Shown here: positions 12,787 to 38,117 of the stretch, in pieces
Position numbering within the stretch: position 1 is the stretch's first letter
Layout: each line of letters begins with the position of its first letter
DNA from: an uncultured Gammaproteobacteria bacterium
GTDB lineage: Bacteria; Patescibacteriota; Microgenomatia; CAZETR01; Amesbacteraceae
Direction: 5' to 3'
Length of the DNA stretch: 58,069 nucleotides
Assembly: GCA_964633995.1 (NCBI GenBank)
Contig: CAZWKN010000002.1
Coordinates: 179,119-237,187, forward strand
Translations under genes and position numbers: made by a program
Notes under the pieces: model-generated
Database searches by the model: none
What the model saw: the letters and a program-made list of their open reading frames with translations, nothing else
What the model was told of the DNA's origin: nothing

Positions 12787-13274
12787 ATTGGTTGGGCGAC
12801 GAGGATGAAACGTTTAGAATCGAAAAGCCCGATACAGGTATACACCGTAATCCGAGCATCTGTGGTCTGTTTGATTACTGCGGTTTGGTCTGAGTCCACT
12901 ATGGAGGTGGAAATGATCCTAAATTTGACAAGTTTGGAGTCTGAAAAGCTAATGTGCACCTCCTGCCCGGGAACCAGAGTGTGAAGTTTACCCAAAAGAT
13001 TTGGCCAGTTGTGGCCATAAAAAACAGAATTGCCTGGGGTTCCCGGCAGTGGAGTAGAAGTAACGTAAGAGACTCCTTTGGGGGTGGTTCCGTTTTCGGT
13101 AGGAATGACCGGCAGGATTAGGCCCAAACTTGGAAAGGAAATGGTTTTAGGTAGACCTGTGGCCGTGTTGGCCACTGCCTGAATGGGAGCATGGCGTTGC
13201 CAGATAAAAAAACCAGACAGAACAAAACAGGCAAGTGAAGCTACGAGTGTCGTTCTGAAGAAGATTTTAGGCAT
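12783..13274 (-). CDS. Sortase family transpeptidase (small, membrane-anchored).
   Basis: N-terminal TM helix; His motif SVFYGHN; Cys motif ITVYTC (TLxTC-type); downstream Arg (KRFILVAQ). Confidence 0.8.
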   Translation of the reverse strand: MPKIFFRTTLVASLACFVLSGFFIWQRHAPIQAVANTATGLPKTISFPSLGLILPVIPTENGTTPKGVSYVTSTPLPGTPGNSVFYGHNWPNLLGKLHTLVPGQEVHISFSDSKLVKFRIISTSIVDSDQTAVIKQTTDARITVYTCIGLFDSKRFILVAQPI

Positions 13275-14125
13275 AAAGAAAGACCAAACAATATAACTCC
13301 GGCTCCAAGTGCGAGAAGTACTTGAGTAGTGTTGCCAGTGGAAGCAAGGCCTAAAACTTGACCCGTGGAAGCCCCCAAGACTTGGCCACCAGGACCAGAG
13401 GCATCTGACGGCATACAGTTGTTTACGGCCCGAACGGAGAAATAATAGGTTTTGGACGGATCAAGACTGCCTATGGTGTAGGTGGTTACTTTGCCGGTGT
13501 TGGGAACGCCATAAATGTAGTTTCCCGGAGCTAAACCGTAGGAAATGGAATAATGAGTGGCATCTGAAACGGCTGACCAGGTAAGAATCGCTGTCGAGCC
13601 ATTTCTGACAACCGAATTTAGCGATGGGGCGGCTGGTTTTTTGGAATCACAGACCGGGGCTTGGCCACCTCCGCCTGTGCCACCATTGCTCCCACCACCG
13701 TTTCCTCCAGTCAGACAACTGTATGGAAAATTTTTGGCCATGTAGGGTGAATCGTCTAAGCCCCACGCAGATCCTGAGGGGACGAAAATCCAACCCAGTT
13801 TTTCAAGCGTAGCAATTTGCGACTGACTAAGAGAGCTTACTTTCCACCAATCGGTTTGGATGCCATTACCCGCCGATGAGCAGAAACATTGACTGAGCTG
13901 ACTATCGTTAACGATATACACCTGATCACTACCCACATAGGTGTTCGTGTCGCCGACTATGCCGTGAATCCCTGAATCATAGCTAATTTTAAGAGAACCC
14001 GTGGGGCTAGTACATGCCGGAAAATTCGGGACAACAAGCTCTGAAACAGCAAGCGAGGTAAGGGGCAATAGAAGACCTAGGAGCAGAAACAGAATACCAA
14101 ACAGCAGTGTTTCACCTAATTTCAT
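13241..14125 (-). CDS. Secreted FN3-domain surface protein with a C-terminal sortase sorting signal (LASTG + hydrophobic helix + basic tail).
   Basis: Signal peptide. FN3-like TAILTWSAVSDATHYSISYG..YYFSVRAVN. The C-terminus reads LASTG-NTTQVLLALGAGVILFGLSLCL-KSSSERHS (nt 13244-13348). Confidence 0.75.
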   Translation of the reverse strand: MKLGETLLFGILFLLLGLLLPLTSLAVSELVVPNFPACTSPTGSLKISYDSGIHGIVGDTNTYVGSDQVYIVNDSQLSQCFCSSAGNGIQTDWWKVSSLSQSQIATLEKLGWIFVPSGSAWGLDDSPYMAKNFPYSCLTGGNGGGSNGGTGGGGQAPVCDSKKPAAPSLNSVVRNGSTAILTWSAVSDATHYSISYGLAPGNYIYGVPNTGKVTTYTIGSLDPSKTYYFSVRAVNNCMPSDASGPGGQVLGASTGQVLGLASTGNTTQVLLALGAGVILFGLSLCLKSSSERHS

Positions 14126-15461: not shown

Positions 15462-16439
15462 ATGGATCTGGCGGGGAAAAATATCATGGTGACTGGTGGA
15501 CTGGGATTTATTGGCAGCAACCTGGCAATTCGGCTGGTCAAAATGGGGGCTAATGTAACTATTGTAGATGCAAAAATTCCTGATACTGGGTGGAACAGCC
15601 ACAATATTGTAGAGATTAAAAACAAAGTCAAAGTTGTGGAAGCCAACATAGCAGATCCGGAAGTCGCTAGATTGATAAGAAAAAGCGAATATGTTTTTAA
15701 CTTGGCTGGAGTACTAAGCCACGTGGATGCCATGAAAGACCCGGTGTTTGATTTGCAAATAAACACTGTTGACCAACTTAAGTTCCTGATGATGTGCATT
15801 AAAGAAAACAAAGATATTAAAATAATTTACACGGGAACCAGAAACCAATACGGAAGAATAGACAAGTTGTTTATAGATGAAAGTTACCGGTTTGACCCGA
15901 TTGACACCAATGGCATTTCTGAAATCGCCGGGGAGGCGTACCATAAACTGTATTGGAAATTGAACGGCATTAGGTCTACCAGTTTGCGGCTTTGTAACGT
16001 ATTTGGCCCCCGGCACCAAATGAGGCATTCCAGGCAGGGGGTTTTGAACTGGTTTATCAGACGATTGATTGACAATGAAAAGATTCAACTGATGGGGGAC
16101 GGATCGCAAATCAGGGACTGCGTATATGTGGAAGACGTAGTGGACGCGCTAATTGACCTGGCTACCACTTCAGACTTGGTGTGGGGAGAAGCGTTTAATA
16201 TAGGAGCTTTTCCGGTATCACTAAAAGAATTTAGCCAAAAGGCGATCGAGGCGAACGGCTCTGGCGAATACGAGCTAGTCCCCTTTCCTAGCGAGCGAAA
16301 ATCCATCGAGCCGGGAAATTACGTAGCCAATTGGGATAAACTAAAAAAGACCGTCGGGTGGACACCTAAATATTCTCTAGATTTAGCTCTTGCCGAAACT
16401 TTTGAGTATTACCGATTGAATAAAGCGAAGTATTGGTAG
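15462..16439 (+). CDS. Extended-SDR NAD-dependent sugar epimerase/dehydratase family protein lacking the canonical YxxxK dyad.
   Basis: IMVTGGLGFIGSNL Rossmann motif right after ATG 15462. The upstream part of the track ORF is repeat DNA. NVFGPR and GDGSQIRDCVYVEDVV are family motifs. At the YxxxK position the sequence reads N-G-I-S-E. Confidence 0.8.
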   Translation: MDLAGKNIMVTGGLGFIGSNLAIRLVKMGANVTIVDAKIPDTGWNSHNIVEIKNKVKVVEANIADPEVARLIRKSEYVFNLAGVLSHVDAMKDPVFDLQINTVDQLKFLMMCIKENKDIKIIYTGTRNQYGRIDKLFIDESYRFDPIDTNGISEIAGEAYHKLYWKLNGIRSTSLRLCNVFGPRHQMRHSRQGVLNWFIRRLIDNEKIQLMGDGSQIRDCVYVEDVVDALIDLATTSDLVWGEAFNIGAFPVSLKEFSQKAIEANGSGEYELVPFPSERKSIEPGNYVANWDKLKKTVGWTPKYSLDLALAETFEYYRLNKAKYW

Positions 16440-17615
16440 TAAGAAAAAGTCGCGCGTCTGGGAATCCAAAACTACTTCCATTTTTTCTTTGGTAACATCG
16501 ACATTTATAAATTTATCTCTAAAACCAGGCGCAGAAACGGAAATGGTCGAATAATCCGAAAGGACGGGAACTAACCCAGTAAAATTCCGGCCAAGATAGA
16601 TTATTTTGGCGTTTGTGAGTAAATTTCCTTGCCTATCAATCACACTTACGGATACTATCTTGGGGGAAAAAAATGAAGCAATCACATCGACCGCCGGCTT
16701 TTTTTCCAGATTAGCCCCCTGCCAAATTTCAGTAGAACCGTCGGCATTTATCCAATAATTTAAGCCCATTAAACCGGGAATTTGAATAAGTTTGCCCATA
16801 GCTTCTTTAATCCACTTGGCTTGACCTTCGGCCGTCATGCTGCCATGAATATCGGGAATTGGCACACCATACTCCCCCAAGACGATTTGGGCGTTTGTTT
16901 TCTTGGCCATGGAGGCAACGTCTTTGGCTAACTTTGTCGGAGTATCGACATAGTGATCCAAAACTATAATTGAATCCAGAGCCGTTACGGTTTGTTTGTC
17001 CATAATTAATTTAGCCACATCCAGATTCATGGAGAAATAATTTGAGGCCACATTTTTTCCTATTTCTTTGAAGGCTTCCTTGGTCGTACCATACTCATCT
17101 ATTAAAAATTGGCGATAACCTTTGACATCACCCGTAGATCTGGGATCACCATCTCCTCCGTTTTCGCATTCATGACACGGTGAATATATATCACCATCGG
17201 CAAACAAATCAGGATTGGCTAAAATAAAGGCCTTGGTTTTGTTAATGTGGTCTACCCTGGAAATGTCCGGGTAGCCGAACCAATTTTCCCAACCAGAGAA
17301 GTTACCCCTAAACCAAACCAACAGCCCGTGAGACCTGGCGGATTTTGTCCACCTGGTCAAAAAAGGAATAAATTCGGCGTCGTAGGGGGTAGCTATGGCT
17401 ACATGGGTGGCTCCGGTAGATGCAATGTCGCTCATCTGTTTATCTATCATGTGATCAAAAGCAGGATTATTGGATTCTGATCTGGCCATATCCCGGGAAA
17501 ACTTCATGGTATCTATGGATTGAATTTTCCAAAGTGTGGGTCGCGAGTCTGCGGCGTGAACCGGGGTGGCCAACAAAAAGATCAAAACACTTAATGAGAG
17601 TAAGACTAATTTCAT
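16383..17615 (-). CDS. Secreted protein, probably a glycoside-hydrolase-like TIM-barrel with a C-terminal beta-sandwich domain.
   Basis: Signal peptide MKLVLLSLSVLIFLLATPVHA. The pattern of alternating strand/helix segments with conserved acidic residues (..HECENGGD.., ..VLGEYGVP..) suggests a GH clan-A-like fold. Weak call from memory only. Confidence 0.4.
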   Translation of the reverse strand: MKLVLLSLSVLIFLLATPVHAADSRPTLWKIQSIDTMKFSRDMARSESNNPAFDHMIDKQMSDIASTGATHVAIATPYDAEFIPFLTRWTKSARSHGLLVWFRGNFSGWENWFGYPDISRVDHINKTKAFILANPDLFADGDIYSPCHECENGGDGDPRSTGDVKGYRQFLIDEYGTTKEAFKEIGKNVASNYFSMNLDVAKLIMDKQTVTALDSIIVLDHYVDTPTKLAKDVASMAKKTNAQIVLGEYGVPIPDIHGSMTAEGQAKWIKEAMGKLIQIPGLMGLNYWINADGSTEIWQGANLEKKPAVDVIASFFSPKIVSVSVIDRQGNLLTNAKIIYLGRNFTGLVPVLSDYSTISVSAPGFRDKFINVDVTKEKMEVVLDSQTRDFFLLPILRFIQSVILKSFGKS

Positions 17616-19264
17616 AAGTTGCGTTCAAAGATCAGAATATCTTCCGATGTATAAACTTTTTTATAGTGAACATACAAGCGCCCTTGTTTTTCTGGAGTGT
17701 CGAAATAATTTTTCCAAAGAGCGTCGTCTTTTTGAAGAATAATCCACTGAGCATGTCTTTGGGGAGAGACGAGGGTTTCTTCCCAATACGGCCTGGTACC
17801 AATATAGATAATGTTCTGCATAGGCAGCTTGGAAGTGATGACACTAAAGATGCGCTTATAATCGTCCATGATCAATAAGCCGCCGGTGTAGTTTTTGGCT
17901 AACCAGCCTACCGCGTCCGGATACTTGTTGGCTGAAAGCCCGATGGTGGCGTCATCATAAGTTACCACACGAGAGTAACCATTTATGTACAGGCCAAATT
18001 GAAGCAGGAAGAGCGTAACGAGAACTATGCGACCTGGAATTTTGCATTTGGTGAAAAGGTAGGCAAACAATATCGCACAAGTGGGAATCATCATCAGGCC
18101 ATACCGGACATTGAAGAGACGCCACTCAAAACCTACTGGGGTAATCGAAGGGATAAAAATCAAAGACTGACCTATATAAAGCGTGAGGACATAAAAAATA
18201 AAGGGTGAAAGCAAAACCAAAGACGTAAAGAACGAATAGCGCGTTTGTTTGTCTTTTACGAAAGAAATAAAGCCTATGATGGAAACCGCAAAGATAAGAA
18301 TACCCACATTGCTCATAGATGTGGCGGTGTAATAGACGACAGAACTGGGAAGATTTTTGTAGGACGGGAGTTGTTTTTTGGCCAGCCAACCTTTTTGCTG
18401 GGACTTGGCCGAGAATTGACTAGTGGTAAAGTAAAACGGATTACCAAGGATCAAAGCCCCCCAACCCAACCAGAGGAAAACACCAAAAAAAGCCAGGGTG
18501 CAAAAGATAATTAATATCCCCTCACCCTTTTGGGTCAGAAGCGTCAATCTGGTGAGTTGGCCATGGAAGAGATTTTTAATAAAGGTGTGGATTTTCGTAT
18601 TAAGCAGGCCAATGATTCCCGCTTGGATCAGAACAATTATCCAGCCGTCGTAACGAGTGAGAGTAGCGCAAAATCCATAGAATGCAGCGAGAATTAAATC
18701 GGTAAGTTTGTCCTGATCATGCAGATATCTGACGAAGTAATAACTATTTAGTACAAAAAAAACTATCAGTGGCAATTCCGTCATGGGGGTGGATTGCATG
18801 TATAAAATGTTCGGATTGGTGATAAAAAGCAAGGAGGCAAGAAAGGCGGCGGATGTATTTTTGGTGAGGAGTTCCGTGAGTTTAAAAATGAAGGAGGCGG
18901 CAACAACAAAGCAAATTCCAGACACGATTGAACCCGCTAAACCAGTCCTCCAAAGGTAATCTGACGCAATAAGAGGCAGCATTAAAATGTGTGGCAATGG
19001 CAACCAAATGCCTCCCAATTGAGCGGCTCCTGGCGTAAGACTGTGGATGACTCTTTTGGCGATGTTTAAATGGGATTCAGCGTCACCATAAGAGATGATG
19101 GTGTGATTTTGAAAAGTAATAAAGGTGGCCACCATAGCAATGGTCACCGACAGTGAAACAGAAATGCTTAGAAGTGGCAATCTGCTGATCCAAGCTAACA
19201 ATCTAGTCAACGGTTTTTTGGGAAGAGTGATGTCAATGGTCATGTTTAGTAAATAAAGGAACAA
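17612..19264 (-). CDS. GT-C fold membrane glycosyltransferase (ArnT/PMT, GT39-like).
   Basis: Polytopic 550-aa ORF with YGDAESHLNIAKRV in the first extracytoplasmic loop (Asp/Glu loop typical of GT-C). By my hand check the codon at 19264-19262 reads TGT, so the real start is more likely ATG 19243-19241. Confidence 0.65.
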   Translation of the reverse strand: MFLYLLNMTIDITLPKKPLTRLLAWISRLPLLSISVSLSVTIAMVATFITFQNHTIISYGDAESHLNIAKRVIHSLTPGAAQLGGIWLPLPHILMLPLIASDYLWRTGLAGSIVSGICFVVAASFIFKLTELLTKNTSAAFLASLLFITNPNILYMQSTPMTELPLIVFFVLNSYYFVRYLHDQDKLTDLILAAFYGFCATLTRYDGWIIVLIQAGIIGLLNTKIHTFIKNLFHGQLTRLTLLTQKGEGILIIFCTLAFFGVFLWLGWGALILGNPFYFTTSQFSAKSQQKGWLAKKQLPSYKNLPSSVVYYTATSMSNVGILIFAVSIIGFISFVKDKQTRYSFFTSLVLLSPFIFYVLTLYIGQSLIFIPSITPVGFEWRLFNVRYGLMMIPTCAILFAYLFTKCKIPGRIVLVTLFLLQFGLYINGYSRVVTYDDATIGLSANKYPDAVGWLAKNYTGGLLIMDDYKRIFSVITSKLPMQNIIYIGTRPYWEETLVSPQRHAQWIILQKDDALWKNYFDTPEKQGRLYVHYKKVYTSEDILIFERNL

Positions 19265-20768
19265 CGAATAAAATTAAAATTGCCAATACAACAACTACGC
19301 CAAGAATAATTAGAAAATAATTGGTTAGATTCATATAATTGTTGATAAATGTGTTGTACATAAAACTACTGCTTCTGTTTGCCGCGATAAACGGTATATT
19401 TTTTACAAAATTATATTGAGTGTGCAAATAAATGGCTTCGGGAGTGGGAGGAATAGTATTGGTTGTTAAGGCCCCCAACAGGGCAACCGCCGATGAATAA
19501 ATAAACAGAACTAGAGCTAGAAGTTTTTTTAGGAACTTGCCATCTGAGATCCAAGCCGCCACGAAAGGGCTTAGTAAGCCAAAAACAGGAATTAAATATC
19601 TGGGTCCATATGCCCAACCACCCCAGGGATCTCCCCAACTACTATACAAAAAGACAACCACCATAACATTAGCAATCATGACGGACGAAAATAATTCAAG
19701 CCGCCGGAGACGGGCAAGTATGCCCAATAAACCCAACACGAAGAGTGGGGAGTATAGGACCAGGCCCCGGTCGTCGGAAACGGTAAGCGTGTAAAAACCG
19801 AACGGGAATTTCTGCTCCGTAAAAAATTTGGTGGGGTTGATTTTTTTCTCTATGGATTTAATAACTAAATCTCCGGACGCAGAGGCTAACAAGTTGGACT
19901 CCTTAATAGTTTTGTAATCGATTAGTCCACCGCTTATTTTTGTCCAACCACCAAATTGAGTTTTGTTGTAATAGCCATGCAGAAGCGTAATGGCAATAAA
20001 AATTGCAGAGGTTGCAACCACAACCGGCCGAAAACTTAGCTTAATATTTCTCACCGTTTGGTCGAGAGAAAATGAGGTTAACCCCAGATAAACAATTACC
20101 GGAGCCATGAGGGCAATATTTGGATAGTCGACACTGATAGCCAAAGCGTATGCTAACCAAACGTAAAGAGAATAAAGCCAGCTGAAGCCTGATTTTTGGG
20201 CATATTTCCAAACCGCATAGATACCCGACAAAATGAAAAATGTGGTGGCCTGGTGCTGATACAGGGTAACTGCGTAGGCCCAGGAGATTGAACCGAAACT
20301 AAAAGCTACGCTTGAAAACACACTTGCCCAAACAGGTAACTTAAACATGTAACGGGAGATTTTGAAGAGGACTACTGCGCTTCCTGTTGCAAAAAGCGAT
20401 GACAAAAAGAAACTGGCGACCTGGGCTAGGCCGTATTTGGCACCTAATATATATAGTGGGAGTGCCATGAGTGAGATGCCGGGGGCAAAGAGGATATAAA
20501 ATCTGCCCTGATGCCAACCGACGTCCGGATAAACTGCGTCCGCCAGACCCGGTCCCAAGTCAAACCGACCGGTGTTGACCAGCGCCATAATGAGGGCATA
20601 TCTACCGCGTTCTGGCGAAAGCTCCAATGGCTTGGTGGCTTGGTCGAGATTATTTTTGATATCCGAGGTAACTGGATTGCCTGCAACTCCTCTTAGAGTA
20701 AAAATATAGAGGGCCATCACAAACATCACCGCGGTTATCGAAAAAAATAAGGTTATGATTTTTTTCAT
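19233..20768 (-). CDS. GT-C fold membrane glycosyltransferase (GT39/GT83-like).
   Basis: 511-aa polytopic ORF with an early loop LSPERGRYALIMALVNTGRFDL..YPDVGW. ATGA overlap with the upstream SDR gene. Confidence 0.6.
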   Translation of the reverse strand: MKKIITLFFSITAVMFVMALYIFTLRGVAGNPVTSDIKNNLDQATKPLELSPERGRYALIMALVNTGRFDLGPGLADAVYPDVGWHQGRFYILFAPGISLMALPLYILGAKYGLAQVASFFLSSLFATGSAVVLFKISRYMFKLPVWASVFSSVAFSFGSISWAYAVTLYQHQATTFFILSGIYAVWKYAQKSGFSWLYSLYVWLAYALAISVDYPNIALMAPVIVYLGLTSFSLDQTVRNIKLSFRPVVVATSAIFIAITLLHGYYNKTQFGGWTKISGGLIDYKTIKESNLLASASGDLVIKSIEKKINPTKFFTEQKFPFGFYTLTVSDDRGLVLYSPLFVLGLLGILARLRRLELFSSVMIANVMVVVFLYSSWGDPWGGWAYGPRYLIPVFGLLSPFVAAWISDGKFLKKLLALVLFIYSSAVALLGALTTNTIPPTPEAIYLHTQYNFVKNIPFIAANRSSSFMYNTFINNYMNLTNYFLIILGVVVVLAILILFVVPLFTKHDH

Positions 20769-23449: not shown

Positions 23450-24277
23450 TCAAATTAATTTAACAAATGGTGTATGAGATAAAATACTTCTAAACATAGT
23501 CGAAACTGGCAAAATTGCAGATTGAACTTCTATTGGCGTAAATGATTGATCCAATCCAACCCGGGGAAGAGCAAACCGATTTGACGCTTTGGTTAACAAG
23601 TCGCTATCCATAGACAGTCCTAATTCATAACCAGTTTTCTTAACCGCAGTGATAATTTTTTCTGAGTATCCTCCTTTGGGGTAGGCAATGTACGGTATTG
23701 AAATATCCAGCTTCTTTTCGAGTGTTTTTTTTGATTTTATTATTTCAATATTTATTTGATCGTCCGATAAATTTGACATAAGTGCGTGTGTGGCAGTATG
23801 ACAACCAATCTCCCAACCTTGTTTATAAAGATTTTTTATCTGTGACGAAGAAAGCAGGGACTGTCCATTGTCCAGCTCGTGTCGGTTTGCGTTTTTTGGG
23901 TCTGACAAGACAAATACCGTGGGTTTTAGATGATACTTGGCTGCCAAATCCGTTATCTGCATGAGATTAGCATAGCCATCATCAAAAGTGATCACTAAAG
24001 ATGGGGAGTCGATGCTTGTTTTCCCATCTAAAAAATTTACCAGGTCTGCTAGAGAAATGAACTTGTAAGATTTTGAGAAAACCTCTAGTTGCCTGGAAAA
24101 CTCATCCTTGCTCAGATTGAAACGCCATTGATCTGACGATATTCCGTGATAGCAAAGAATCGTGATCAATGGTTTTCGGCTAACAATATTATTCAATAGC
24201 AATGTAACCGCATAGACGGTTTTCCGGAGCAGTAATCCGGGGCTTAATTTTGTTTTTGAGTTGATATATTTGATCAT
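23450..24277 (-). CDS. Polysaccharide deacetylase (CE4, NodB homology domain).
   Basis: LVITFDDGYANL, GWEIGCHTATH, IAYPKGGYS motifs. Confidence 0.85.
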   Translation of the reverse strand: MIKYINSKTKLSPGLLLRKTVYAVTLLLNNIVSRKPLITILCYHGISSDQWRFNLSKDEFSRQLEVFSKSYKFISLADLVNFLDGKTSIDSPSLVITFDDGYANLMQITDLAAKYHLKPTVFVLSDPKNANRHELDNGQSLLSSSQIKNLYKQGWEIGCHTATHALMSNLSDDQINIEIIKSKKTLEKKLDISIPYIAYPKGGYSEKIITAVKKTGYELGLSMDSDLLTKASNRFALPRVGLDQSFTPIEVQSAILPVSTMFRSILSHTPFVKLI

Positions 24278-25179
24278 ACGGAAATTGCTTTTTTAGAGCT
24301 TGTTACAAATGCCCATGCGTTTTGGGTGTGATTAATAAACCTTGATCTAACAAGAGAAAATATATAAATTATCACGTTGACTATGACTAAAATGGGGTGG
24401 CGCAAAAGATATACAAAAGTCCAATAGATTACATTTAACCATGGGGTTTTGGTTAACTCGCGAACATTTGATATTCCAAATTCTTTGTTTATTTTCTCAA
24501 TTGCTTGGACAAAACGAATGGATTGTTTTTCATGGTCCGAATAATTTGTTGGCAACCGGTAAGTAATAAAAGCGTGACTTACAAAAAGGTATTTAAAACC
24601 TTTAGTTAGGCAATAGACGTAAGAATACAAATCCTCACCAGCACTAAACTTAACATTAAGTTGCTTATACAATCGCTTTGAAAAGGCCCTGGCCAGGCCA
24701 TGACAGGTGTAGAAATTGTTGCCGTTTTTATAATGATTGAAGACAGATCTTTTTATGTCTTCACTTACCAGCAATACCTGCTCAAAAAAACCTTCAGGTT
24801 TAAGCTGTTCTATGTCTGCGGATGTCAGATCGACATTGTTTTCTATTATTGGCCGCGCCATCTTGTCCAAAAAGAATTTGTCCGGGATCCGAACATCGGC
24901 GTCGATAACAAACAAAATTGGTGTCTGAGAAAGTCGTGACACTTCGTTTATGCTAAATGCTTTGCCCTGTCTTTTGGCATGCTCAATGATTTTTATTTTT
25001 TTTGAATTTATTTTTTTTACGATTAAAACCGTATCGTCTGTACATTCGTCGCAAACTACATAAATGGTTTTAACCATGGTTAACTCACTCTGTTGAGCCA
25101 ACAAATCCGTAAGAACATTCTTTATATTTGCGGCCTCATTGTAAGCCGGGATACAGATAGTAATTTGTGTTTTGCTCAT
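24274..25179 (-). CDS. GT2 glycosyltransferase with C-terminal TM helices.
   Basis: ITICIPAYNEAANI..VVCDECTDDT..VIDADV. The start is set at ATG 25179 (ATGA overlap with the upstream stop) rather than the track start at 25209. Confidence 0.8.
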   Translation of the reverse strand: MSKTQITICIPAYNEAANIKNVLTDLLAQQSELTMVKTIYVVCDECTDDTVLIVKKINSKKIKIIEHAKRQGKAFSINEVSRLSQTPILFVIDADVRIPDKFFLDKMARPIIENNVDLTSADIEQLKPEGFFEQVLLVSEDIKRSVFNHYKNGNNFYTCHGLARAFSKRLYKQLNVKFSAGEDLYSYVYCLTKGFKYLFVSHAFITYRLPTNYSDHEKQSIRFVQAIEKINKEFGISNVRELTKTPWLNVIYWTFVYLLRHPILVIVNVIIYIFSLVRSRFINHTQNAWAFVTSSKKAISV

Positions 25180-26084
25180 AGCGATTTGGTTTTCCCTACC
25201 ACGGTCCATATTCCCCGTGACGAGTCCTCAAGATAAAATGGTTTTACTAGTCTGAGTACTATTTGAAGGATGATAGCTAAAATTGAATAAATAGGATTTC
25301 TTAGCGTTTCAGTGAGAACTCCCTGAATTTTTTGAGACAACGTTGGATTGTGGTCGGCATAAATATTCTGGCTAAACAGTTTTTCAATGTGTACTTGGGT
25401 GTCTACGTAACGGCTGTTTTGAAGGAGAAAATCGTGCAGATTATCTGCAATTCTGTAATAAACACTGGCCGATGGTACCATTACAAATTTGTATCCCTGT
25501 TTTTTTACATCTAGATATTCATATGCGTCGATAGCAAATAAATTTTTGGGGTAATGTATGTTTTTGGCTATGTTTTTTCGCAGGCCATTAACACATCCAT
25601 GTAAATTATGAATTGAATCTCCGGTATTGATTTTTACACGAATTTCATACCAAATATTGACTCCGGCTTCAACAATTTTCTCAAAGAATTTTTTGGCAGG
25701 AAATGGAATGTCATGTCCAGCCACAGCTCCGACCTTGTCATCATTAAACGGTCCGACGAGATCTTCTATTACCGTATCCATTGCCAAAACTGAATCAGCG
25801 TCAAAAGTAATAAATATATCGCTTGTATTAAGGTGATAAAACTGCATTAGTCTTCCGGCTTGACCCAGTCTTTTTCCATCATTAATTAATTTTACGGTAG
25901 GGTGTTTTTTTGCAAATTTTTTTACTAAATCTACCGTGGAATCAGTGCTCCCATCATTAGCAATGTAAACTTTTTCCAATGTATAGTTTTTATGCTTTTG
26001 GGCATAAATAGAATCGAGAACACGGACTATCCCCTTTTCCTCATTAAAGGCTGGAATTCCAATGGTAACTGTAAACTTTTTCAT
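25176..26084 (-). CDS. GT2 glycosyltransferase with a C-terminal TM helix.
   Basis: VTIGIPAFNEEKGI..IANDGSTDST..TFDADS motifs. Confidence 0.8.
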   Translation of the reverse strand: MKKFTVTIGIPAFNEEKGIVRVLDSIYAQKHKNYTLEKVYIANDGSTDSTVDLVKKFAKKHPTVKLINDGKRLGQAGRLMQFYHLNTSDIFITFDADSVLAMDTVIEDLVGPFNDDKVGAVAGHDIPFPAKKFFEKIVEAGVNIWYEIRVKINTGDSIHNLHGCVNGLRKNIAKNIHYPKNLFAIDAYEYLDVKKQGYKFVMVPSASVYYRIADNLHDFLLQNSRYVDTQVHIEKLFSQNIYADHNPTLSQKIQGVLTETLRNPIYSILAIILQIVLRLVKPFYLEDSSRGIWTVVGKTKSL

Positions 26085-27010
26085 TTTGACTGTAACAAGT
26101 TGTTTAAGTGAGCTGGTTTGGATGCATTAATTTTTAGAAAGGCACCCGAACCTAATGTGTGGTGTAGTGCAATATATTTTTCAAAGAACGGTTGTGCGCG
26201 TAAGGCATACTTGTCCTTCAATGTTTTATACACTGCCGAGCAATTGGGCTGGTTTGACAGGAACGAAATATCGTAACCTTTTGCCGTATATACAAAACTT
26301 TCTCCATCAACCAGATAAACTCTATGATTTTTTATCAAAATATTGTTAGGTGTTAGGTCGCGGTGGGACAGATAAAAGTTATTCAAATCCAAGGTGGCAT
26401 AGTCTTTAAGACATGCAGTAAATGTTTTGAAATATAGCATTGCGTTTTTAAAATCGTGAATTATTGTCAACAATGTAATAAATGGCAACAATAACAAGTA
26501 GAACCAGCCTGGACGGATTGTTAGCGGTTTTGCGGATTCTTCGTGACTAATCTTTATTGAATTTATTTTATTAATGACACTGGCTACAATCTTTGCTTGA
26601 TAAGTAGTTGGGAAGTTGTCTAAGGGCGTACCGTTATCAATAAATTCGTAAACAAATGCGGCTCCAAATGACCCAAGTATGCATTCTACTGATTTAGGTA
26701 TTGAAAAACTGGCTTTAGAAAAAACTTGTATAAGATGTTGATTAGTCAGATATTCATTAACCAGAAAATTGTAATTTAAGTCTCTCAAGCCGCCTAACCA
26801 GAGTTTTACGAAATATTTTTTGGAATTTTTTTTGTAAATACAGATGGACATGTTACTGAATTTATCCGATTTTGGAATTTGCCTGACTAGAGTGTAGTTT
26901 CCAAATTTAGACGGGGGCAACTTTGGTGATTTAAAAATCAAAGAGTTTAACTGCAACGCAACCCCGCTAAAAAGCAATTGGAATAAATTTGGTTGCGTTA
27001 AATTGGTCAT
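26081..27010 (-). CDS. Protein-kinase-like fold phosphotransferase (LPS/sugar kinase or APH/choline-kinase-like).
   Basis: Catalytic-loop-like LSHRDLTPNNILI followed by YLVDGESF (DFG-equivalent). It is embedded in the glycosyltransferase operon with ATGA overlaps on both sides. Confidence 0.55.
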   Translation of the reverse strand: MTNLTQPNLFQLLFSGVALQLNSLIFKSPKLPPSKFGNYTLVRQIPKSDKFSNMSICIYKKNSKKYFVKLWLGGLRDLNYNFLVNEYLTNQHLIQVFSKASFSIPKSVECILGSFGAAFVYEFIDNGTPLDNFPTTYQAKIVASVINKINSIKISHEESAKPLTIRPGWFYLLLLPFITLLTIIHDFKNAMLYFKTFTACLKDYATLDLNNFYLSHRDLTPNNILIKNHRVYLVDGESFVYTAKGYDISFLSNQPNCSAVYKTLKDKYALRAQPFFEKYIALHHTLGSGAFLKINASKPAHLNNLLQSK

Positions 27011-30000
27011 TGATTTGTTTGATTCTGATAAACCGGGTGTTTATTTATCATATAGTCATATTTGTGATTTAAATTTGTATTTATTACTTCCATAAATTTA
27101 TTTGAGCAGGTGGGCCAACTGAAATTTTGACCCCAGGCAACTGCGTTTTTGGCAAGAGCGTTTCTAAGTTTTGTATCTTTGACGAGTTTTAGAATTGCGG
27201 CTTCTATGGCCTCCGGGTCCATAGGTTTAACCAATAACCCGGTTTGGCCGTCCAAAACGGAATCCTTCAATCCATCGACATTGGCGGCAATAACGGGAGT
27301 TCCACATAGATTGGCTTCAATATTAGTAATCCCCCATCCTTCTACCATAGAAGGTTGAACAGCAATCCAGCTTTTTGTGAACAATTCTGCCTTTTCCTCA
27401 TCTGAAACCTTGCCTAAAAATTCGATGTTACTTCCCATCTCCAACTGAGCCGCAATGGTTTTGAGCCGATGCTCGTCTTCTCCGGAACCTGCTATATAAA
27501 GTTTAATGTCCGGAATTGTCACTTTGGCATTGGAAACGGCCATAATGAGAAGATCGATGAATTTGTATGGTCTGAGTCGACCAAGGTAGATTACCGAGGG
27601 AAATTTAGTTTTTGCTATTTTGGCTTTTTTAATCTCTACTCCTGGCTCGACAATATTGATTGCCCGGGATTTCCCAAGTCCGATGGACTCAAAAGATTTT
27701 TTAGCGGATGGCGATACGGCCACCATCTCAATGTTTCTGTAAACAAACGGCAATGCTTGGCCTTCTAGAAACATGGAAATTTGCTTGAATGGAAATGCCA
27801 ATCCAGTACGAAACATCTCCTGGTGAACTTGAAAAATTAGACAAACAATTGGCACGCCAAATACATATAGGGGGGTAAAAAATGGAACGCCTTTGGGGAC
27901 GTCAATAATGACGTCGAAATGGCCTCTAAACTTGAGAAGATAATAAATCATTCCCCAAAGAGCTACTGTGAACTGACCACCCCGACGGACAACACTTACT
28001 CCATCTATCGTCTCGTGCTGGGAACTTCTTTGGTCGTTACCGGTAAACATGGTTACCTCATGACCTGCTTTGACCCATTCCTTGGCCATATTATGAACAT
28101 ATAGTTCGGCCCCACCAGCCCAAACGTGCTTTACGTCATACCAGTTAAAGATAAGAATTCTGAGATTGCCGGATGTGGGACGCTTGACGTGCCTAAAGGA
28201 CTTGAATAGGTCCAATAAATCAAGAACGTGGCTTGAAACTATTTTGAGCTGATTTTGAAAAATGTGTAATGTTAGGACCACAAACAAATAAACAAGCCCC
28301 ATGACCAACATGTCTAAGACAACCAATTTCAAACTGGAATGGTAGACATAAAGTACGATTATTTGGAGAATATTTATAAAAAAGCCAACTATTGGAAAAT
28401 GGTACTGCTTGCGAATTTGATGGTAATTGACAATAGTCGTGGCGATAGTGAAAGCCGCCATACTAAGACAAAAAGCTGGCAAGTATGAGACAATGGCCAG
28501 CGCTTTCGGGCCAAATAGAAGCGGTACGGTGATGTAACCTAATACCCCAACCAACACAAAGGCTACGAAACTTGAAAAAGAGATGGCTGCCAGTAGTTTG
28601 TAGAAGACATTTTTGGAATTGGCTCCTTCACCTTCGGCTTTGCTAACAATAGGGGTCACAAACTGGGAAAACAAACTGCCGACAAAATAAACCATTTTCC
28701 CAACTAAGGCAATGAGGGCGTACTGCCCCGCCTGGACTGGGGAAAGAAATATTTTGGCCAGAATAACATCGAGACTTAGGAAGGCCATCGAGGAAAGTCG
28801 AACCAGAATTGATGTCGCAAAAAAACGTCTGGGGAAATAAAGTGTCGTCTGGTCGTCCAGTGATTTGGCAGAATCTTGCATAGATTTGGCCACAAACCAC
28901 ACCACCATAAAACTGACAAGCATGGACAGTGGAATTGAGGCGTAAATATATTCCGGTAGATTTAGATGTACAAAAACCATCGTAATAAGAAGTTTGAAGA
29001 CTGCTTCTAGCACAGAAGACAGGGCCATCAGTCCAAATTTTTGGTAGCCATATAGAAACCCACCATCTACGGCTGTTAGTAAACTTAGGATCCAAACCGG
29101 ACTAAAGATGAGGAATGGTAAAACGGAGTTGGAGTGAAAAATCTGAGCGAGGACTGGCGACAGTACTAACCAAACAAGGGTTAAAAGAATAGAAACAGGA
29201 AAAATACGTTTTCTAAGAGATTGCCAGAATCGTTTAACGGTCACTTGATGCTTGCCCAAAAGATATGCACTGCGGTATGTAACCGTCCTGGAAAGGGCGG
29301 ATGCCGGGATCTGAGAAATGTACAGGAGACTACTAACGAGACTTAACATACCAAACTCTTCTACCGACACGTTCCTCGCCCGGCCCAGGTAAGCGTTGTA
29401 CAGGAAATTGAAAAAGTTGCCAAACAGGGAGGCACCGATGAGTAGTCCCCCGGGGACGTACTTGTAATAATTTTTTAGACTAAACGCCGACTTGACGGAA
29501 ACGTTTAATCCGTGGGTAGTTTTTTCCCAATAGTGGGGCTTGAAAATAAGCTGGGAAAACGCTTTGAAAGCCGCAATGCTGACTAATAACCAATAAAACG
29601 GGATTAAAAATACATATTTAATCACCGGCCAGGCTCCCCGCTTGGCACAACCGATCATGTAGTAATAAACATATAAAAAATTGCCAAAGACCAGGGAGAT
29701 GGCAGCTAAATAAAAGATTATTGACGGGTACAACGCTTCGATGGCCGGACCCACAAATTGGTAGAGAGTAAAGTAGGCAATCGTGGCCAACCACAAAAAC
29801 GGATTGATAATCATAAAGGCCATACGCATACCTATTACGAGTTGGAAAATTAGAGCATGGATGCCATGTTCTTTAATAAACCGGAGGGGATGGCGATTGT
29901 GAACAAAAAAGGTCTGCATGTAACCCTTTATCCACCTGGACCTCTGACGGATCCAGTTGCCGATTTTACTGTTGGCTTCTTCGAGGGTTATAGAATCAAC

Positions 30001-31641
30001 TATTCCGGTGGTGTAACCTAGTTTAAAAAGTCGAGAACCCAGGTCGCAGTCTTCGGTCACATTGAAAGCGTCCCAACCATGAAGCTGCTTTAGGACTTTG
30101 GTTTTGAAATGATTTGATGTGCCCCCCAGTGGAATAGTGGTACTAAGTGACTGCAAACCGGGCAATACTACGTCGAACCACAAAGAATATTCGGCGGTAA
30201 AAAACCGAGTCAGTAGATTTTGGTGGGGATTGTAATAATTTAATTTGGCCTGAAGACAAACTGTCTTTTCAGATGATTTCAAAAACCCCAAATAGGCTTT
30301 TTTGAGTTGGCTTGGTTCCGGTTCATCTTCAGCGTCATAAATAACTACGTATTCGCCTTTGGCGTGGGAAAGACCATAGTTACAAGCTTTGGGTTTGGTT
30401 TTGGGAAATGAATGGGGAACAACCAAAACCCTGAAATACTCCGGCAGATTCATAGATTTGGCGGCTTCTATTGTCTTGGAATCGTCTTCTTCCAATAACA
30501 ACAGCACATCTAACTTTGCTTTGGGCCAATCGAGTTTGGAAATGTTTTCTACAAATTTTGGCAAAACATGGGCTTCTTTGTAGAGAGGACAAAGGATAGA
30601 GTAAGTTGGCAGTTTGTCAGTTTTACAGTTGTCCAGTTCAGCAGATGAGAAAGATAGCTCGGGGGGGAAGTGTAAACTTTTAAGCACCAAAAAGAGACTG
30701 AAGACGACGTCGGCAAAGTAGATAGAGCTAAGAAGGGCTGTAAACACAATCCCGGTAAGAAGCGGGTTAACAAAAAGACCTAAAAACAAAACGGCAAACA
30801 GGCCAAGAAGTGTATATTTTTGCCAAGGCACTAAAGTGTAAATGGCTGAGTGATGATGGGGTAGTGTGGAATGGGTGATAAACCTATGTTTTTTGTAGGC
30901 AAAACCAGCCCCCACCATCGAGTCCGCTCCTGTGGCCGGAAATTCGTAAACCTTGTGTTTGGCAAAACGAGTTTTGATAGCTCCAATACCGATTTGTTTG
31001 GCTGCGACTAAAAACTCCTGTTTAAGTTTGGAAATGCCCACTTGACGGGTGACAAAATCGATTGGAACCTGGCCTAAGGTGTAACCCAGCTCTCGATTGG
31101 TATGTAATAACGGAATATCAATGGACCAAGCCCCAACGAGGGAGGAGTCAATGTGGGTAATTACCTCACGCCGAAAAAGCTTGAGACCAGATTGAATGTC
31201 GCAGTTAAGACCCAATAGTAGGCGGCCAAAAAGGATCGAGTGGGAATTGGAAGCTAGGTGGCGCAAAAAACCAGTGTGAGTGGTAATTCGTTTGGCGACA
31301 ACAACGCCATGGGTGTGCATTTGGTCATACATGACAGGAATTGCTTCGGGCGGGTATTCCAAATCCGCGTCAATCATGGCTAAAACCGGAGCGGTAGATA
31401 AACTGGCACCTTCCAAAATTGAAAATGCTTTGCCTGGTATGCCTTCTTTTAACAGGTGGGTGATGGGAAATTTTTTGGAGAGTCTTTTGAGTATCTTTGC
31501 GGTATCGTCGGTTGATCTGTCGTCGACATAAATTATCCGATAGGATATTTTGTCTTTGAGGGCTTTATCTATGCGCGTGACTAATTGCAAGAGGCTGGCA
31601 GCTTCGTTTTTTGCGGGTATGATTATGTCTAATTCAGTCAT
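27007..31641 (-). CDS. 1544-aa multidomain glycan-assembly protein: Dpm1-type GT2 + TM block + processive GT2 synthase (QRSRW) with TM helices + MOP/Wzx-like polysaccharide-transporter domain + GT4.
   Basis: Module 1 (aa 1-225): IIIPAKNE, YVDDRSTDD, IDADLEYP, TRQVGISKL. Module 2 (aa ~345-590): SILCPLYKE, IYDAEDEP, NVTEDCDLG, QRSRW (nt 29932-29946, hand-verified). Module 3 (aa ~725-1135): long hydrophobic region resembling a polysaccharide biosynthesis/flippase protein. Module 4 (aa ~1160-1544): ILIFNWYD..GGAE and EGWGITNIEANLCGTPVIA (GT4). Confidence 0.8.
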   Translation of the reverse strand: MTELDIIIPAKNEAASLLQLVTRIDKALKDKISYRIIYVDDRSTDDTAKILKRLSKKFPITHLLKEGIPGKAFSILEGASLSTAPVLAMIDADLEYPPEAIPVMYDQMHTHGVVVAKRITTHTGFLRHLASNSHSILFGRLLLGLNCDIQSGLKLFRREVITHIDSSLVGAWSIDIPLLHTNRELGYTLGQVPIDFVTRQVGISKLKQEFLVAAKQIGIGAIKTRFAKHKVYEFPATGADSMVGAGFAYKKHRFITHSTLPHHHSAIYTLVPWQKYTLLGLFAVLFLGLFVNPLLTGIVFTALLSSIYFADVVFSLFLVLKSLHFPPELSFSSAELDNCKTDKLPTYSILCPLYKEAHVLPKFVENISKLDWPKAKLDVLLLLEEDDSKTIEAAKSMNLPEYFRVLVVPHSFPKTKPKACNYGLSHAKGEYVVIYDAEDEPEPSQLKKAYLGFLKSSEKTVCLQAKLNYYNPHQNLLTRFFTAEYSLWFDVVLPGLQSLSTTIPLGGTSNHFKTKVLKQLHGWDAFNVTEDCDLGSRLFKLGYTTGIVDSITLEEANSKIGNWIRQRSRWIKGYMQTFFVHNRHPLRFIKEHGIHALIFQLVIGMRMAFMIINPFLWLATIAYFTLYQFVGPAIEALYPSIIFYLAAISLVFGNFLYVYYYMIGCAKRGAWPVIKYVFLIPFYWLLVSIAAFKAFSQLIFKPHYWEKTTHGLNVSVKSAFSLKNYYKYVPGGLLIGASLFGNFFNFLYNAYLGRARNVSVEEFGMLSLVSSLLYISQIPASALSRTVTYRSAYLLGKHQVTVKRFWQSLRKRIFPVSILLTLVWLVLSPVLAQIFHSNSVLPFLIFSPVWILSLLTAVDGGFLYGYQKFGLMALSSVLEAVFKLLITMVFVHLNLPEYIYASIPLSMLVSFMVVWFVAKSMQDSAKSLDDQTTLYFPRRFFATSILVRLSSMAFLSLDVILAKIFLSPVQAGQYALIALVGKMVYFVGSLFSQFVTPIVSKAEGEGANSKNVFYKLLAAISFSSFVAFVLVGVLGYITVPLLFGPKALAIVSYLPAFCLSMAAFTIATTIVNYHQIRKQYHFPIVGFFINILQIIVLYVYHSSLKLVVLDMLVMGLVYLFVVLTLHIFQNQLKIVSSHVLDLLDLFKSFRHVKRPTSGNLRILIFNWYDVKHVWAGGAELYVHNMAKEWVKAGHEVTMFTGNDQRSSQHETIDGVSVVRRGGQFTVALWGMIYYLLKFRGHFDVIIDVPKGVPFFTPLYVFGVPIVCLIFQVHQEMFRTGLAFPFKQISMFLEGQALPFVYRNIEMVAVSPSAKKSFESIGLGKSRAINIVEPGVEIKKAKIAKTKFPSVIYLGRLRPYKFIDLLIMAVSNAKVTIPDIKLYIAGSGEDEHRLKTIAAQLEMGSNIEFLGKVSDEEKAELFTKSWIAVQPSMVEGWGITNIEANLCGTPVIAANVDGLKDSVLDGQTGLLVKPMDPEAIEAAILKLVKDTKLRNALAKNAVAWGQNFSWPTCSNKFMEVINTNLNHKYDYMINKHPVYQNQTNQ

Positions 31642-32086: not shown

Positions 32087-32869
32087 CTAAATTGCTTTTT
32101 TGAAGACCAAAAACGTCCCTAAACCTAAAAGAATAAATGCAGAAAAAATAAGCGCCAATGACGGCACTAAACTTGGAGGCCGGGAAGGGTTTTGAACACC
32201 AAGAACGGATGGGGTGGGAATAGGGGTTGGGGATTGGGGGATAGGGGTTGGAGTGGTGAATGTGGGGATAGGGGTTGGGGGTTTGGGGATGGATGTGGGA
32301 ATAGGGGCTAGGGTAGGGGTAAGGGGTTTAGGGGTTGGGGATTGGGGGATGGATGTGGGTCTGGTTGTGGGGTTGGGTTTGGGAACTGAGGTCGGAATTG
32401 GGGTTTGTGTGGGAATGGGAGAGGGACCTGTGACAGAGATGACCACCTGATTAGCCCAGGTCGCACTACTGTTGGCCGACGTGTAGCGGCCAATTTTGAA
32501 ATGATATTCTCCAGGACCTGAATAATATTGGCTGTCAGGATCTAACTTAAACCTGAGTGTACCACTCCAGCTGGCGTCGGAAAAATCTTCGTGTGAGACG
32601 TGAAAATAGAGTGACTTATCGCTGGCAGAATTTATCCATTCTCCGTTATTATTGGCTGTGTAACCAAAATAGTTTGTAGTGTCGCCTTTAAAAAACACCC
32701 CTCTTAGATAGGTTTCTCTACAACTTTGACAAGTTAAGTTGACTAGGATTGAAAAGTCTTGAGTTTGATCAAGAGACGAGGGGGTATTTGAAAATGAAAT
32801 GTCGACTGCTAGAACAGAAGTCGTAGAGACGACAAAAAACAGGAGGATTGCCCATCCCCAATGTTTCAT
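32087..32869 (-). CDS. Secreted protein with a globular N-terminal domain, a long Pro/Thr-rich repeat linker and a C-terminal TM anchor.
   Basis: Signal peptide MKHWGWAILLFFVVSTTSVLA from ATG 32869 (the track start at 32884 is GTG). Linker PIPTQTPIPTSVPKPNPTT...TPTPIPQSPTPIPTPS. C-terminal LALIFSAFILLGLGTFLVF-KKAI. Confidence 0.65.
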   Translation of the reverse strand: MKHWGWAILLFFVVSTTSVLAVDISFSNTPSSLDQTQDFSILVNLTCQSCRETYLRGVFFKGDTTNYFGYTANNNGEWINSASDKSLYFHVSHEDFSDASWSGTLRFKLDPDSQYYSGPGEYHFKIGRYTSANSSATWANQVVISVTGPSPIPTQTPIPTSVPKPNPTTRPTSIPQSPTPKPLTPTLAPIPTSIPKPPTPIPTFTTPTPIPQSPTPIPTPSVLGVQNPSRPPSLVPSLALIFSAFILLGLGTFLVFKKAI

Positions 32870-32887
32870 AATTTGAGTATACACCGA

Positions 32888-37721: not shown

Positions 37722-37760
37722 CAGTTATCCAGTTTTACAGTTTTTCAGTTAAGTTAACTA
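37722..37760. repeat. Octamer tandem array, copy 2: CAGTTatc CAGTTtta CAGTTttt CAGTTAAGTTaacta.
   Basis: CAGTT at 37722, 37730, 37738 and 37746. Same orientation as copy 1. It overlaps the stop codon of the four-helix-bundle gene. Confidence 0.85.
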
Positions 37761-38117
37761 ATGATTTAATTTGTTAAGTATTGACGAAAAAAGACGAAGA
37801 TACTCGTCTGCTTCAGATTTTAACATTTTGGCTTCGTTTGCTAGATTTGGAACTGTATTCTCAATTATTTCCAACCAGTAAATCGATTCCTTACTCTCTT
37901 TGCGACAAATTTTTAACCGCATATAAAAATCTTTCCCGCCCAGTGACTCGTTCGCCTCTATGTAATTAGCCCCCACTGAACTTCCCGAACGACTTAACTG
38001 ATCAGATAAATTTTGATTTATCCTGTCTTTGGGGAGTTTTTTACAAAATAAAATTATTTTTTTAGAAAATCCCAGTAGACGAGTTTGGAGTTGTTGGGCA
38101 AATTCACGGTTATCCAC
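37758..38117 (-). CDS. Four-helix-bundle protein (23S rRNA intervening-sequence protein / Avd-like family).
   Basis: SGSSVGANYIEANESLGGKDFYMRLKICRKESKESIYWLEII is characteristic of this family. 119 aa, GTG start. Confidence 0.85.
   Translation of the reverse strand: MDNREFAQQLQTRLLGFSKKIILFCKKLPKDRINQNLSDQLSRSGSSVGANYIEANESLGGKDFYMRLKICRKESKESIYWLEIIENTVPNLANEAKMLKSEADEYLRLFSSILNKLNH

Follow-up and report, generated by a model that had tools for sequence, protein, structure and literature searches.

The Pel system, which is synthase-dependent, employs PelF as its glycosyltransferase (GT) and PelG as its subunit for transport at the inner membrane (PMC8892547). In streptococci, the Wzx-type flippase GacK has been proposed to act with the GT-A enzyme GacI and the GT-C enzyme GacL, and systems composed of a GT-A enzyme, a Wzx-type flippase and a GT-C enzyme have been reviewed (PMC8035078). 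A further described protein is the E. coli synthase NfrB, which is activated by cyclic di-GMP, binds this nucleotide by a C-terminal MshEN domain and has been proposed to make a polymer of N-acetylmannosamine (PMC8669469). We analysed a stretch of 58,069 nucleotides (hereafter the window; positions 179,119 to 237,187 of the forward strand of contig CAZWKN010000002.1, GenBank assembly GCA_964633995.1, deposited as an uncultured Gammaproteobacteria bacterium and placed by GTDB in the Patescibacteriota, Microgenomatia, Amesbacteraceae), in which a single minus-strand open reading frame (ORF) joins modules resembling those of the systems above. We regard it as virtually certain that this ORF, which starts with ATG and runs without interruption for 1544 aa, is a real four-module protein. 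Its layout is as follows (window coordinates; TM, transmembrane).

27007..31641, minus strand: whole ORF, 1544 aa, in the order GT2a, 2 TM, GT2b, about 4 TM, predicted 12-TM MOP domain, GT4, with about 18 TM helices in total
30856..31641, minus strand, aa 1-262: module 1, GT2a, a GT2 of the polyprenyl-phosphate glycosyltransferase type (DPMS/GtrB/ArnC-like), from PF00535, PDB profile and Foldseek
30637..30855, minus strand, aa 263-335: TM hairpin, homologous to the N-terminal TM pair of stand-alone synthase relatives
29872..30636, minus strand, aa 336-590: module 2 catalytic domain, GT2b, a membrane-embedded synthase-type GT2
29497..29871, minus strand, aa 591-715: synthase C-terminal helices, ending in an invariant P-x-x-W-E-K-T-x-H-G
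28162..29496, minus strand, aa 716-1160: module 3, predicted 12-TM MOP-superfamily domain, a divergent PST/Wzx (Polysacc_synt) member
27010..28161, minus strand, aa 1161-1544: module 4, GT4 (GT-B, retaining type)

A preliminary description of the window had proposed these four modules, and Pfam, fold models and intact catalytic motifs bear them out at the positions first given. Every motif quoted in that description was located in the translated ORF, namely IIIPAKNE (aa 6-13), YVDDRSTDD (38-46), IDADLEYP (90-97), TRQVGISKL (198-206), QRSRW (566-570) and EGWGITNIEANLCGTPVIA (1434-1452), and the N-terminus fits the family consensus MxxLDIIIPVxNE. On the whole protein, Pfam matched GT2 domains at aa 6-160 and 345-626 (the latter PF13641/PF13632) and a GT4 (PF13439 and PF00534) at 1176-1500; the two GT2 segments and the GT4 segment were thus recognized directly, and the middle segment only via its homologues. 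We set the module borders at nt 30636/7, 29496/7 and 28161/2, within a few codons of the junctions suggested previously (about nt 30610, 29470 and 28165). The DAD, DxD, TED, QRSRW and EX7E residues are invariant in alignments of 31-120 homologues.

Module 1 is a polyisoprenyl-phosphate glycosyltransferase by its DxD GT-A domain, its likeness to DPMS, GtrB and ArnC and its juxtamembrane helices. PF00535 was matched at aa 6-160 (E-value 5.5e-34 with the whole protein, over two stretches, and 1.3e-21 with the N-terminal segment alone), and the module contains a DAD motif (D91, D93), an amphipathic helix at 206-225 and a beta-hairpin, with D41, D45, D91, D93, D148 and Q150 invariant. A profile built from 31 homologues and compared with the PDB matched, over aa 2-212, the Pyrococcus furiosus DPMS 5mlz (2e-31), ArnC (1.4e-26) and GtrB (4e-23). 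Foldseek, applied to a model of aa 1-720, likewise returned DPMS, ArnC and GtrB for this module, with root-mean-square deviations of 2.7-3.6 A at 22-26% identity (5mlz, 3.2 A at 26% identity; ArnC 9bhe, TMt 0.62). The module appears to have no TM domain of its own, in which it would differ from GtrB and ArnC (two TM helices each; four in the P. furiosus DPMS), and it probably leans on the TM hairpin of the synthase. Matches to the synthase from outside the candidate phyla radiation (CPR; Patescibacteria) begin at about aa 263, and we assigned the hairpin to the synthase module because stand-alone synthases begin with a homologous pair of TM helices. The only helices that follow GT2a (aa 272-324) are the homologues of this pair and may serve both enzymes.

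Module 2 is the best-conserved part of the protein (70-78% column identity) and belongs with the BcsA/HAS/PgaC-type enzymes by its D (D386/D387), DxD (D436-A-E-D439), TED (T529-E-D531) and QxxRW (Q566-R-S-R-W570) motifs. Pfam placed PF13641 at aa 345-573 (3e-24) and PF13632 at 431-626 (1.5e-20), the top NCBIfam match over aa 325-702 was PgaC_IcaA (4.3e-25, far under its cut-off), and the 31-homologue profile matched BcsA 7lby (3.4e-16) over aa 344-623. The AlphaFold2 model of aa 1-720 (pLDDT 89.4, pTM 0.86) has helices at 272-324, 560-581 and 594-700; module 2 with its helices was aligned by Foldseek with Chlorella virus HAS (TMt 0.51-0.57), Xenopus HAS1 and BcsA over about 450 columns. In the model, TM helices lie on either side of the GT domain and a helix carrying QxxRW lies at the interface, an arrangement predicted to correspond to that of synthase translocation channels. 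Among the characterized relatives compared, NfrB is the closest (22% identity, against 11-20% for solved synthases), and it shares with module 2 the TED, RQxSRWI and W-[ED]-K-T-T-H motifs, the last as WDKTTHD, which resembles the motif at the end of our synthase module.

The middle region (aa about 716-1160) contains 12 hydrophobic helices but in isolation gave no match in Pfam or NCBIfam, even at E<=10, and its profile matched no MOP protein among PDB sequences, only a spurious G-protein-coupled receptor. The assignment came from its homologues and from its predicted fold. PF01943 (Polysacc_synt) was matched by 6 of 31 full-length homologues and by 9 of 28 isolated homologue domains (best 4.8e-11), some homologues also matched PF13440 and MatE, and separately encoded homologues in neighbouring genes, which are 37-39% identical to the window's region, matched PF13440 at 4.7e-8 over positions 2-291 of 293. 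The AlphaFold2 model (pLDDT 92.6, pTM 0.90) gave MATE, MurJ or WzxE as all of its top 50 Foldseek matches, which span its full length over 424-462 aligned columns and reach a TMq of 0.74 (MurJ, TMq 0.73-0.74; the lipid III flippase WzxE, TMt 0.73). From the helix count, the Pfam matches of the homologues and this fold, we identify module 3 as a divergent 12-TM Wzx/PST-type MOP domain, with a predicted membership based on transitive homology and on fold, and the earlier suggestion that the hydrophobic block is MOP/Wzx-like is upheld. The module shares 12 TM helices and the MOP fold with WzxE (9g95) and MurJ, and differs from them in being only 12-16% identical to solved MOP proteins, in lacking MurJ helices 13-14 and in lying inside a polypeptide with several GTs. 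R754 and D958 are among its conserved residues. The structural comparison with BcsA/HAS and with MurJ/Wzx that had been recommended found both sets, each with its respective module.

Module 4 is a GT4, with two Rossmann-like domains and an EX7E motif (E1434...E1442, both invariant), a GG loop (G1176, G1177), R1355 and K1360. PF13439 was matched at aa 1176-1337 (7.8e-10) and PF00534 at 1338-1500 (1e-43), and PDB profile matches were to GT4s of the MshA, PimA, TarM and PglH type. The number of helices between the catalytic domains is always even (2, about 4 and 12, by helix prediction and the AlphaFold2 models). As the MshEN domain of NfrB follows a motif similar to that at the end of module 2, we place the junction at this end in the cytoplasm, and the even counts together with this WEKTxHG-type motif indicate that all three GT domains should be cytoplasmic.

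We then considered whether the fusion could have arisen by an assembly or frameshift error that joined two to four genes. The best 120 database matches included the window's own protein; among the remaining 119, 118 were 1513-1593 aa long, with 98-100% query coverage and 48-57% identity. Those relatives that bear a name belong to Amesbacteria, Gottesmanbacteria, Curtissbacteria or unclassified Microgenomates; the databases label them as 'hypothetical protein', 'glycosyltransferase' or 'XagB'. An Amesbacteria orthologue (P0009) of 1569 aa occurs on 24 contigs, and at the two places examined, which derive from different samples, the gene order is that of the window: RF, ftsE, ftsX, a pcsB-like gene, a gene with no assigned function and the large GT gene, after which come genes for a kinase-like protein, a deacetylase-GT2 protein, a methyltransferase, a GT4, a pair of membrane proteins, one secreted protein, a protein with fn3 and a sortase. 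In a few relatives (L009, L010 and L016) overlapping ORFs do break the protein at module borders, as an artefact might. Set against these are the 118 near-full-length relatives from many independent assemblies, the intact orthologue with the same gene order at two independently sampled Amesbacteria loci, the even G+C content along the ORF (0.42-0.455, with a window mean of 0.429) and a coherent overall topology. We therefore see next to no chance that the window's ORF is an artefact, and for the family as a whole that explanation is effectively refuted: the fusion is genuine and belongs to a CPR (Microgenomates) genome.

The architecture is not singular, since Microgenomates commonly carry the full fusion and related genomes show its modules in every intermediate fused or split state. 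In a Rosetta-stone comparison of 44 CPR loci, many of them cut by contig ends, the order of the modules was constant; the forms found were the full fusion, the fusion without GT2a, GT2a-GT2b-GT4 without MOP, GT2a-GT2b next to a separate MOP-GT4, GT2b next to MOP-GT4, and GT2b next to MOP. GT4 was present in 25 of the 28 MOP-bearing loci (odds ratio 6.25, p 0.04, uncorrected for phylogeny), and almost all of these encode the two in one ORF. When the MOP region was compared by phmmer with 1.84 billion representative proteins, it matched 141 clusters at E<=1e-30, and among the 150 matches listed we counted by eye about 50 stand-alone MOP proteins (about 410-470 aa), about 45 MOP-GT4 proteins (about 720-900 aa), a few proteins of about 1100-1420 aa and nine of full length (1530-1611 aa), so that the MOP-GT4 two-domain protein is the commonest fused form among them. 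One locus from a Saccharimonadales-labelled metagenome-assembled genome (L024) has three GT2a-GT2b genes, a fourth gene consisting of a partial MOP remnant joined to GT4, and then a separate MOP gene, which suggests local duplication and decay of modules.

Outside the CPR, the catalytic domain of module 2 is 56-64% identical to proteins of Firmicutes, Chloroflexi, Actinobacteria and Planctomycetes. The non-CPR proteins that we scanned (from Paenibacillus, Desulforamulus, a Chloroflexi metagenome-assembled genome and a Solirubrobacterales metagenome-assembled genome) carry one to six MshEN domains at the N-terminus (for example L055:7256-11395, L069:8690-11389 and L060:9044-11425, within loci L045-L080), and this MshEN-synthase family looks uncharacterized in Firmicutes, Chloroflexi and Actinobacteria. 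In these relatives the MshEN domains are N-terminal, whereas that of NfrB is C-terminal (PMC8669469). GT-C genes adjoin the non-CPR synthase, and in some Firmicutes a DPMS-like GT2 gene does so too; the GT2b-GT-C linkage thus holds also in Firmicutes, Chloroflexi and Actinobacteria. In a member of the Ktedonobacteraceae (L053:9815-12724) the synthase is fused directly to a PMT_2 GT-C domain in a protein of about 970 aa, as confirmed with Pfam, and ORFs of similar length occur at L056, L058 and L059. This fusion provides independent evidence that the synthase and a GT-C enzyme probably work together.

How does this protein compare with the known systems? With HAS, BcsA, PgaC and NfrB it shares the catalytic motifs of module 2 and a GT-A domain enclosed by two N-terminal and about four C-terminal TM helices, and it differs from them in having no PilZ or MshEN receptor (Pfam found no NfrB-type MshEN domain in the window's protein), no BcsB/PgaD-type partner and three extra fused modules. 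The systems in which GtrB, CsbB or GacI act with GtrA or GacK and a GT-C enzyme (YfhO, GacL), together with DPMS and ArnC-ArnT, resemble it in the type of GT2a, in the Wzx-type domain on the same polypeptide and in the PMT_2 GT-C encoded a few genes downstream; in contrast with GtrB/GacI-type systems, there is here a covalent fusion to a synthase and a GT4, and the presence of GT2a and that of MOP are uncorrelated. PelG is a member of the PST/MOP group. The likeness to Pel lies in the pairing of a GT4 with a polytopic transporter and in a cluster that encodes a deacetylase (PelA in Pel), whereas the window's cluster lacks a PelG-family signal, PelD and PelE, has an extra HAS-like GT2 and fuses the MOP and GT4 parts that are separate in Pel. 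E. coli K4 chondroitin polymerase, which was among the Foldseek matches of the half with two GT2s, also has several GT domains on one chain, but it is a soluble enzyme in which two GT-A domains take turns on a single chain, whereas the GT2s of the window's protein are of different classes and membrane-integrated. It had been argued beforehand that the canonical routes keep these activities on separate proteins and do not normally pair a synthase with a flippase. For the four-way fusion we found no describing or testing paper in the searchable literature, nor any paper that characterizes this architecture in CPR bacteria or a Wzx-synthase fusion; the statement on pairing was too strong, given the precedents of Pel and GacK. 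Each module is of a known kind and the sequences are already public under generic names; it is the fusion itself for which no describing paper was found. A look-up of the window protein by exact sequence returned no record.

The large ORF heads a conserved cluster of about 15-19 kb. Its neighbours in the window, with those at either edge of the cluster, are listed below.

26081-27010, minus strand: kinase-like gene, 309 aa, overlapping the stop codon of the large ORF by 4 nt; weak Choline_kinase/APH match (5e-5, below cut-off)
24274..26084, minus strand: two genes for GT2s of 302 and 311 aa, both with a single TM helix at the C-terminus
23450..24277, minus strand: CE4 polysaccharide deacetylase, with IcaB/PgaB-like best matches; 11 CPR loci
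19233-20768, minus strand: M511, polytopic, LA_3751-like putative GT; 30 of 44 CPR loci
17612-19264, minus strand: GTC550, polytopic PMT_2 GT-C; 33 of 44 CPR loci
16383-17615, minus strand: U410, secreted, 410 aa, signal peptide; end of the glycan cluster; 22 CPR loci
12783-14125, minus strand: sortase-substrate-like protein of 294 aa (signal peptide, fn3, C-terminal LASTG, hydrophobic helix, charged tail), then a 163-aa sortase
32087-32884, minus strand: Pro/Thr-rich protein, 265 aa (signal peptide, long Pro/Thr-rich stretch, C-terminal TM helix)

The kinase-like gene recurs directly downstream of the large gene at L002 and L010 and further downstream at L013, a 329-aa gene with no Pfam match occupies the counterpart position in Amesbacteria, and its product might phosphorylate a sugar or a glycan substituent. 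Homologues of the two single-TM GT2 genes were found in 27 and 30 of the 44 CPR loci. In the part of the Amesbacteria cluster that corresponds to the window's CE4 gene there is a PIG-L deacetylase-GT2 fusion gene, and the downstream GT4 gene, which in the window is fused to a methyltransferase, was present in eight CPR loci. The segment 23450-27010, which runs from the kinase-like gene through both small GT2 genes to that for the deacetylase, has a low G+C content (0.35-0.38 compared with 0.43). No other portion of the cluster is as variable from locus to locus, and the segment may be an exchangeable specificity region. Relatives of GTC550 accompany the synthase also outside the CPR. U410 has invariant acidic residues at E110, E149, E151 and E248 and might be the glycan-trimming hydrolase that is usual in synthase-type operons; we do not claim it as a clan GH-A hydrolase, for which the basis would be the invariant glutamates and a beta-glucuronidase match at E 0.24. 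The pair of fn3 protein and sortase closes the glycan cluster at several loci, including Amesbacteria. Upstream of the large ORF, the Pro/Thr-rich gene sits between the pcsB-like, ftsX and ftsE genes and a VanZ-like gene, and its product is a plausible target of O-glycosylation. The large protein had been pictured as a self-contained machine, a view that the cluster does not sustain: its membrane GT2s, CE4 deacetylase, GT4, two polytopic proteins and secreted protein are conserved downstream partners, which indicates that the large protein heads a pathway.

Elsewhere in the window, on the minus strand, two further proteins join a GT2 to another domain, one of 732 aa (236-2434) to a PMT_2 GT-C domain and one of 383 aa (3480-4631) to a GtrA/DPMS TM domain, and the fusing of parts for transmembrane glycosylation seems to be a habit of this genome. 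The window also holds a gene for a 23S rRNA intervening-sequence protein (37758-38117, minus strand); no tRNA, rRNA or Rfam family was found in it.

Given these results, we hold it slightly more probable than an even bet that the ORF fuses the cytoplasmic-face and the translocation steps of one surface-glycan pathway, steps that in related Patescibacteria are spread over two to four neighbouring genes. GT2b (aa 263-715) would polymerize a nucleotide sugar, probably an N-acetylhexosamine, into a beta-glycan and thread the chain through its own helices; the IcaB/PgaB-like best matches of the deacetylase and the PgaC-like best match of GT2b hint at such a polymer. GT4 would glycosylate a lipid-linked acceptor at the cytoplasmic face, the identity of which is a guess, the MOP domain fused ahead of it would flip the GT4 product outward, and GT2a would load a sugar on to polyprenyl phosphate. 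At the outer face, GTC550 and M511 would transfer these lipid-linked sugars either to the polymer, so as to decorate, lengthen or anchor it, or to surface proteins close by, the substrates of the GT-C proteins again being guesses, and the deacetylase would then modify the polymer. Processivity, the substrates, the flipped species and the coupling between modules are what we infer in this scheme, as is the action of the synthase and flippase domains on the same glycan. It is unlikely, though worth stating, that a processive synthase and a lipid-linked route form one machine and so a fourth way of building a surface glycan. The HAS-like module would then extrude the backbone, GT4-MOP would deliver a lipid-linked anchor or primer, the DPMS-like module would supply lipid-linked sugars and the downstream GT-C proteins would join, anchor or decorate the emerging chain. 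GPI and lipomannan biosynthesis use GT4 enzymes, a de-N-acetylase, a flippase, DPMS and GT-C enzymes, and a more speculative variant by analogy with them would have a de-N-acetylated glycolipid whose free amine might serve as the acceptor for the sortase at the end of the cluster.

Several observations weigh against the one-pathway model. Across the CPR loci the presence of MOP was not correlated with that of GT2a (odds ratio 1.35, p 0.73, uncorrected for phylogeny), so the simple idea that MOP flips the GT2a product has no support from co-occurrence, and a MOP domain dedicated to this product in the manner of GacI and GacK was rejected on that ground. At six loci GT4 is fused straight to the synthase without MOP and hence may act with the synthase instead of the flippase. 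The co-occurrence counts themselves ignore phylogeny, and many loci end at contig edges. The specific enzyme families (PgaC, BcsA and MshA) all score far below their equivalog cut-offs, and QxxRW-type GT2s include non-processive lipid glycosyltransferases too, with a weak GT21 match in the Pfam scan of the present protein. Finally, M511 and U410 gave no match in the PDB (with single sequences or profiles) or in Pfam, and so have no structural or family assignment.

Could the protein instead be a Pel-like double synthase? MOP-GT4 would then be a fused analogue of PelG and PelF, with GT4 making an alpha-linked chain that MOP exports, and GT2b would make a second, beta-linked polymer or alternate with GT4 on a heteropolymer. 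PelF and PelG are the GT and the inner-membrane transport protein, encoded separately, of a synthase-dependent system (PMC8892547, PMC7112168), and the fusion of MOP with GT4 at most loci, as the commonest two-domain form, would fit such a pair, as would a deacetylase in the cluster, found also in pel, pga and ica operons, and the MOP-less GT2b-GT4 fusions, if two GTs work on one chain. We nevertheless find this explanation improbable, as none of 28 MOP-domain homologues matches the PelG family (only Polysacc_synt, Polysacc_synt_3 and MatE were matched), PelF is absent from the 25 best-listed NCBIfam matches of 64 families, no PelD or PelE equivalent (GGDEF/GAF or TPR-type) was found among the neighbours scanned, and the eight loci with GT4 but no MOP would have a polymer without an exporter; in addition, the role of PelG as a conduit is a proposal and is not demonstrated.

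The modules might also be fused for co-expression without mechanistic coupling, for stoichiometry or to spare regulatory elements in a small genome, and serve two or more separate glycans, namely a secreted homopolymer, a pool of lipid-linked sugars with which the sortase substrates encoded nearby would be O-glycosylated, and a glycolipid. Single modules come and go independently from locus to locus, this genome has the GT2-PMT_2 and GT2-GtrA fusions noted above, protein O-mannosyltransferases belong among the PMT_2 proteins, and the cluster is adjoined by surface proteins, one Pro/Thr-rich and one a sortase substrate. This is improbable, however, when module order always equals gene order, when the set and the same downstream genes are kept together across many Patescibacteria lineages and when the GT2b-GT-C linkage persists across phyla. 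A Wzx/Wzy-type pathway, in which the GT2s and GT4 would build an undecaprenyl-diphosphate repeat unit, MOP would flip it, M511 would be the Wzy and GT2b would be non-processive, we consider very unlikely. The homologues of the MOP domain do fall in the Polysacc_synt (Wzx) family, several GT2 and GT4 genes downstream look non-processive, and M511 is polytopic and unassigned. In contrast, neither an initiating phosphoglycosyl transferase (Bac_transf or MraY/WecA type) nor a Wzy or O-antigen-ligase family was recognized among the approximately 30 neighbours scanned (nt 236-56311), in which the cluster differs from Wzx/Wzy pathways; GT2b has the full synthase architecture and its HAS/BcsA match extends over about 450 columns, and relatives of GT2b operate at many loci with no MOP gene.

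The natural fusion is in itself evidence of joint action between a HAS/BcsA-like synthase, a Wzx-type transporter, a GT4 and a polyprenyl-phosphate sugar synthase, which textbooks place in separate pathways. The MOP-GT4 fusion bears on the question of what the MOP-like subunit of Pel-type systems transports. As the synthase-GT-C link exists in cultivable Firmicutes (Paenibacillus and Desulforamulus, where the synthase bears MshEN domains), the idea is genetically testable, and a single polypeptide with 18 TM helices and three catalytic domains is a compact target for cryo-electron microscopy. The cell envelopes of CPR bacteria are almost unstudied, and their surfaces presumably mediate attachment to hosts. 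The protein described here stands first in what is apparently the main conserved surface-glycan cluster of Microgenomates, beside the ftsE, ftsX and pcsB-like division genes, and the fusion offers an entry point to the CPR cell surface.

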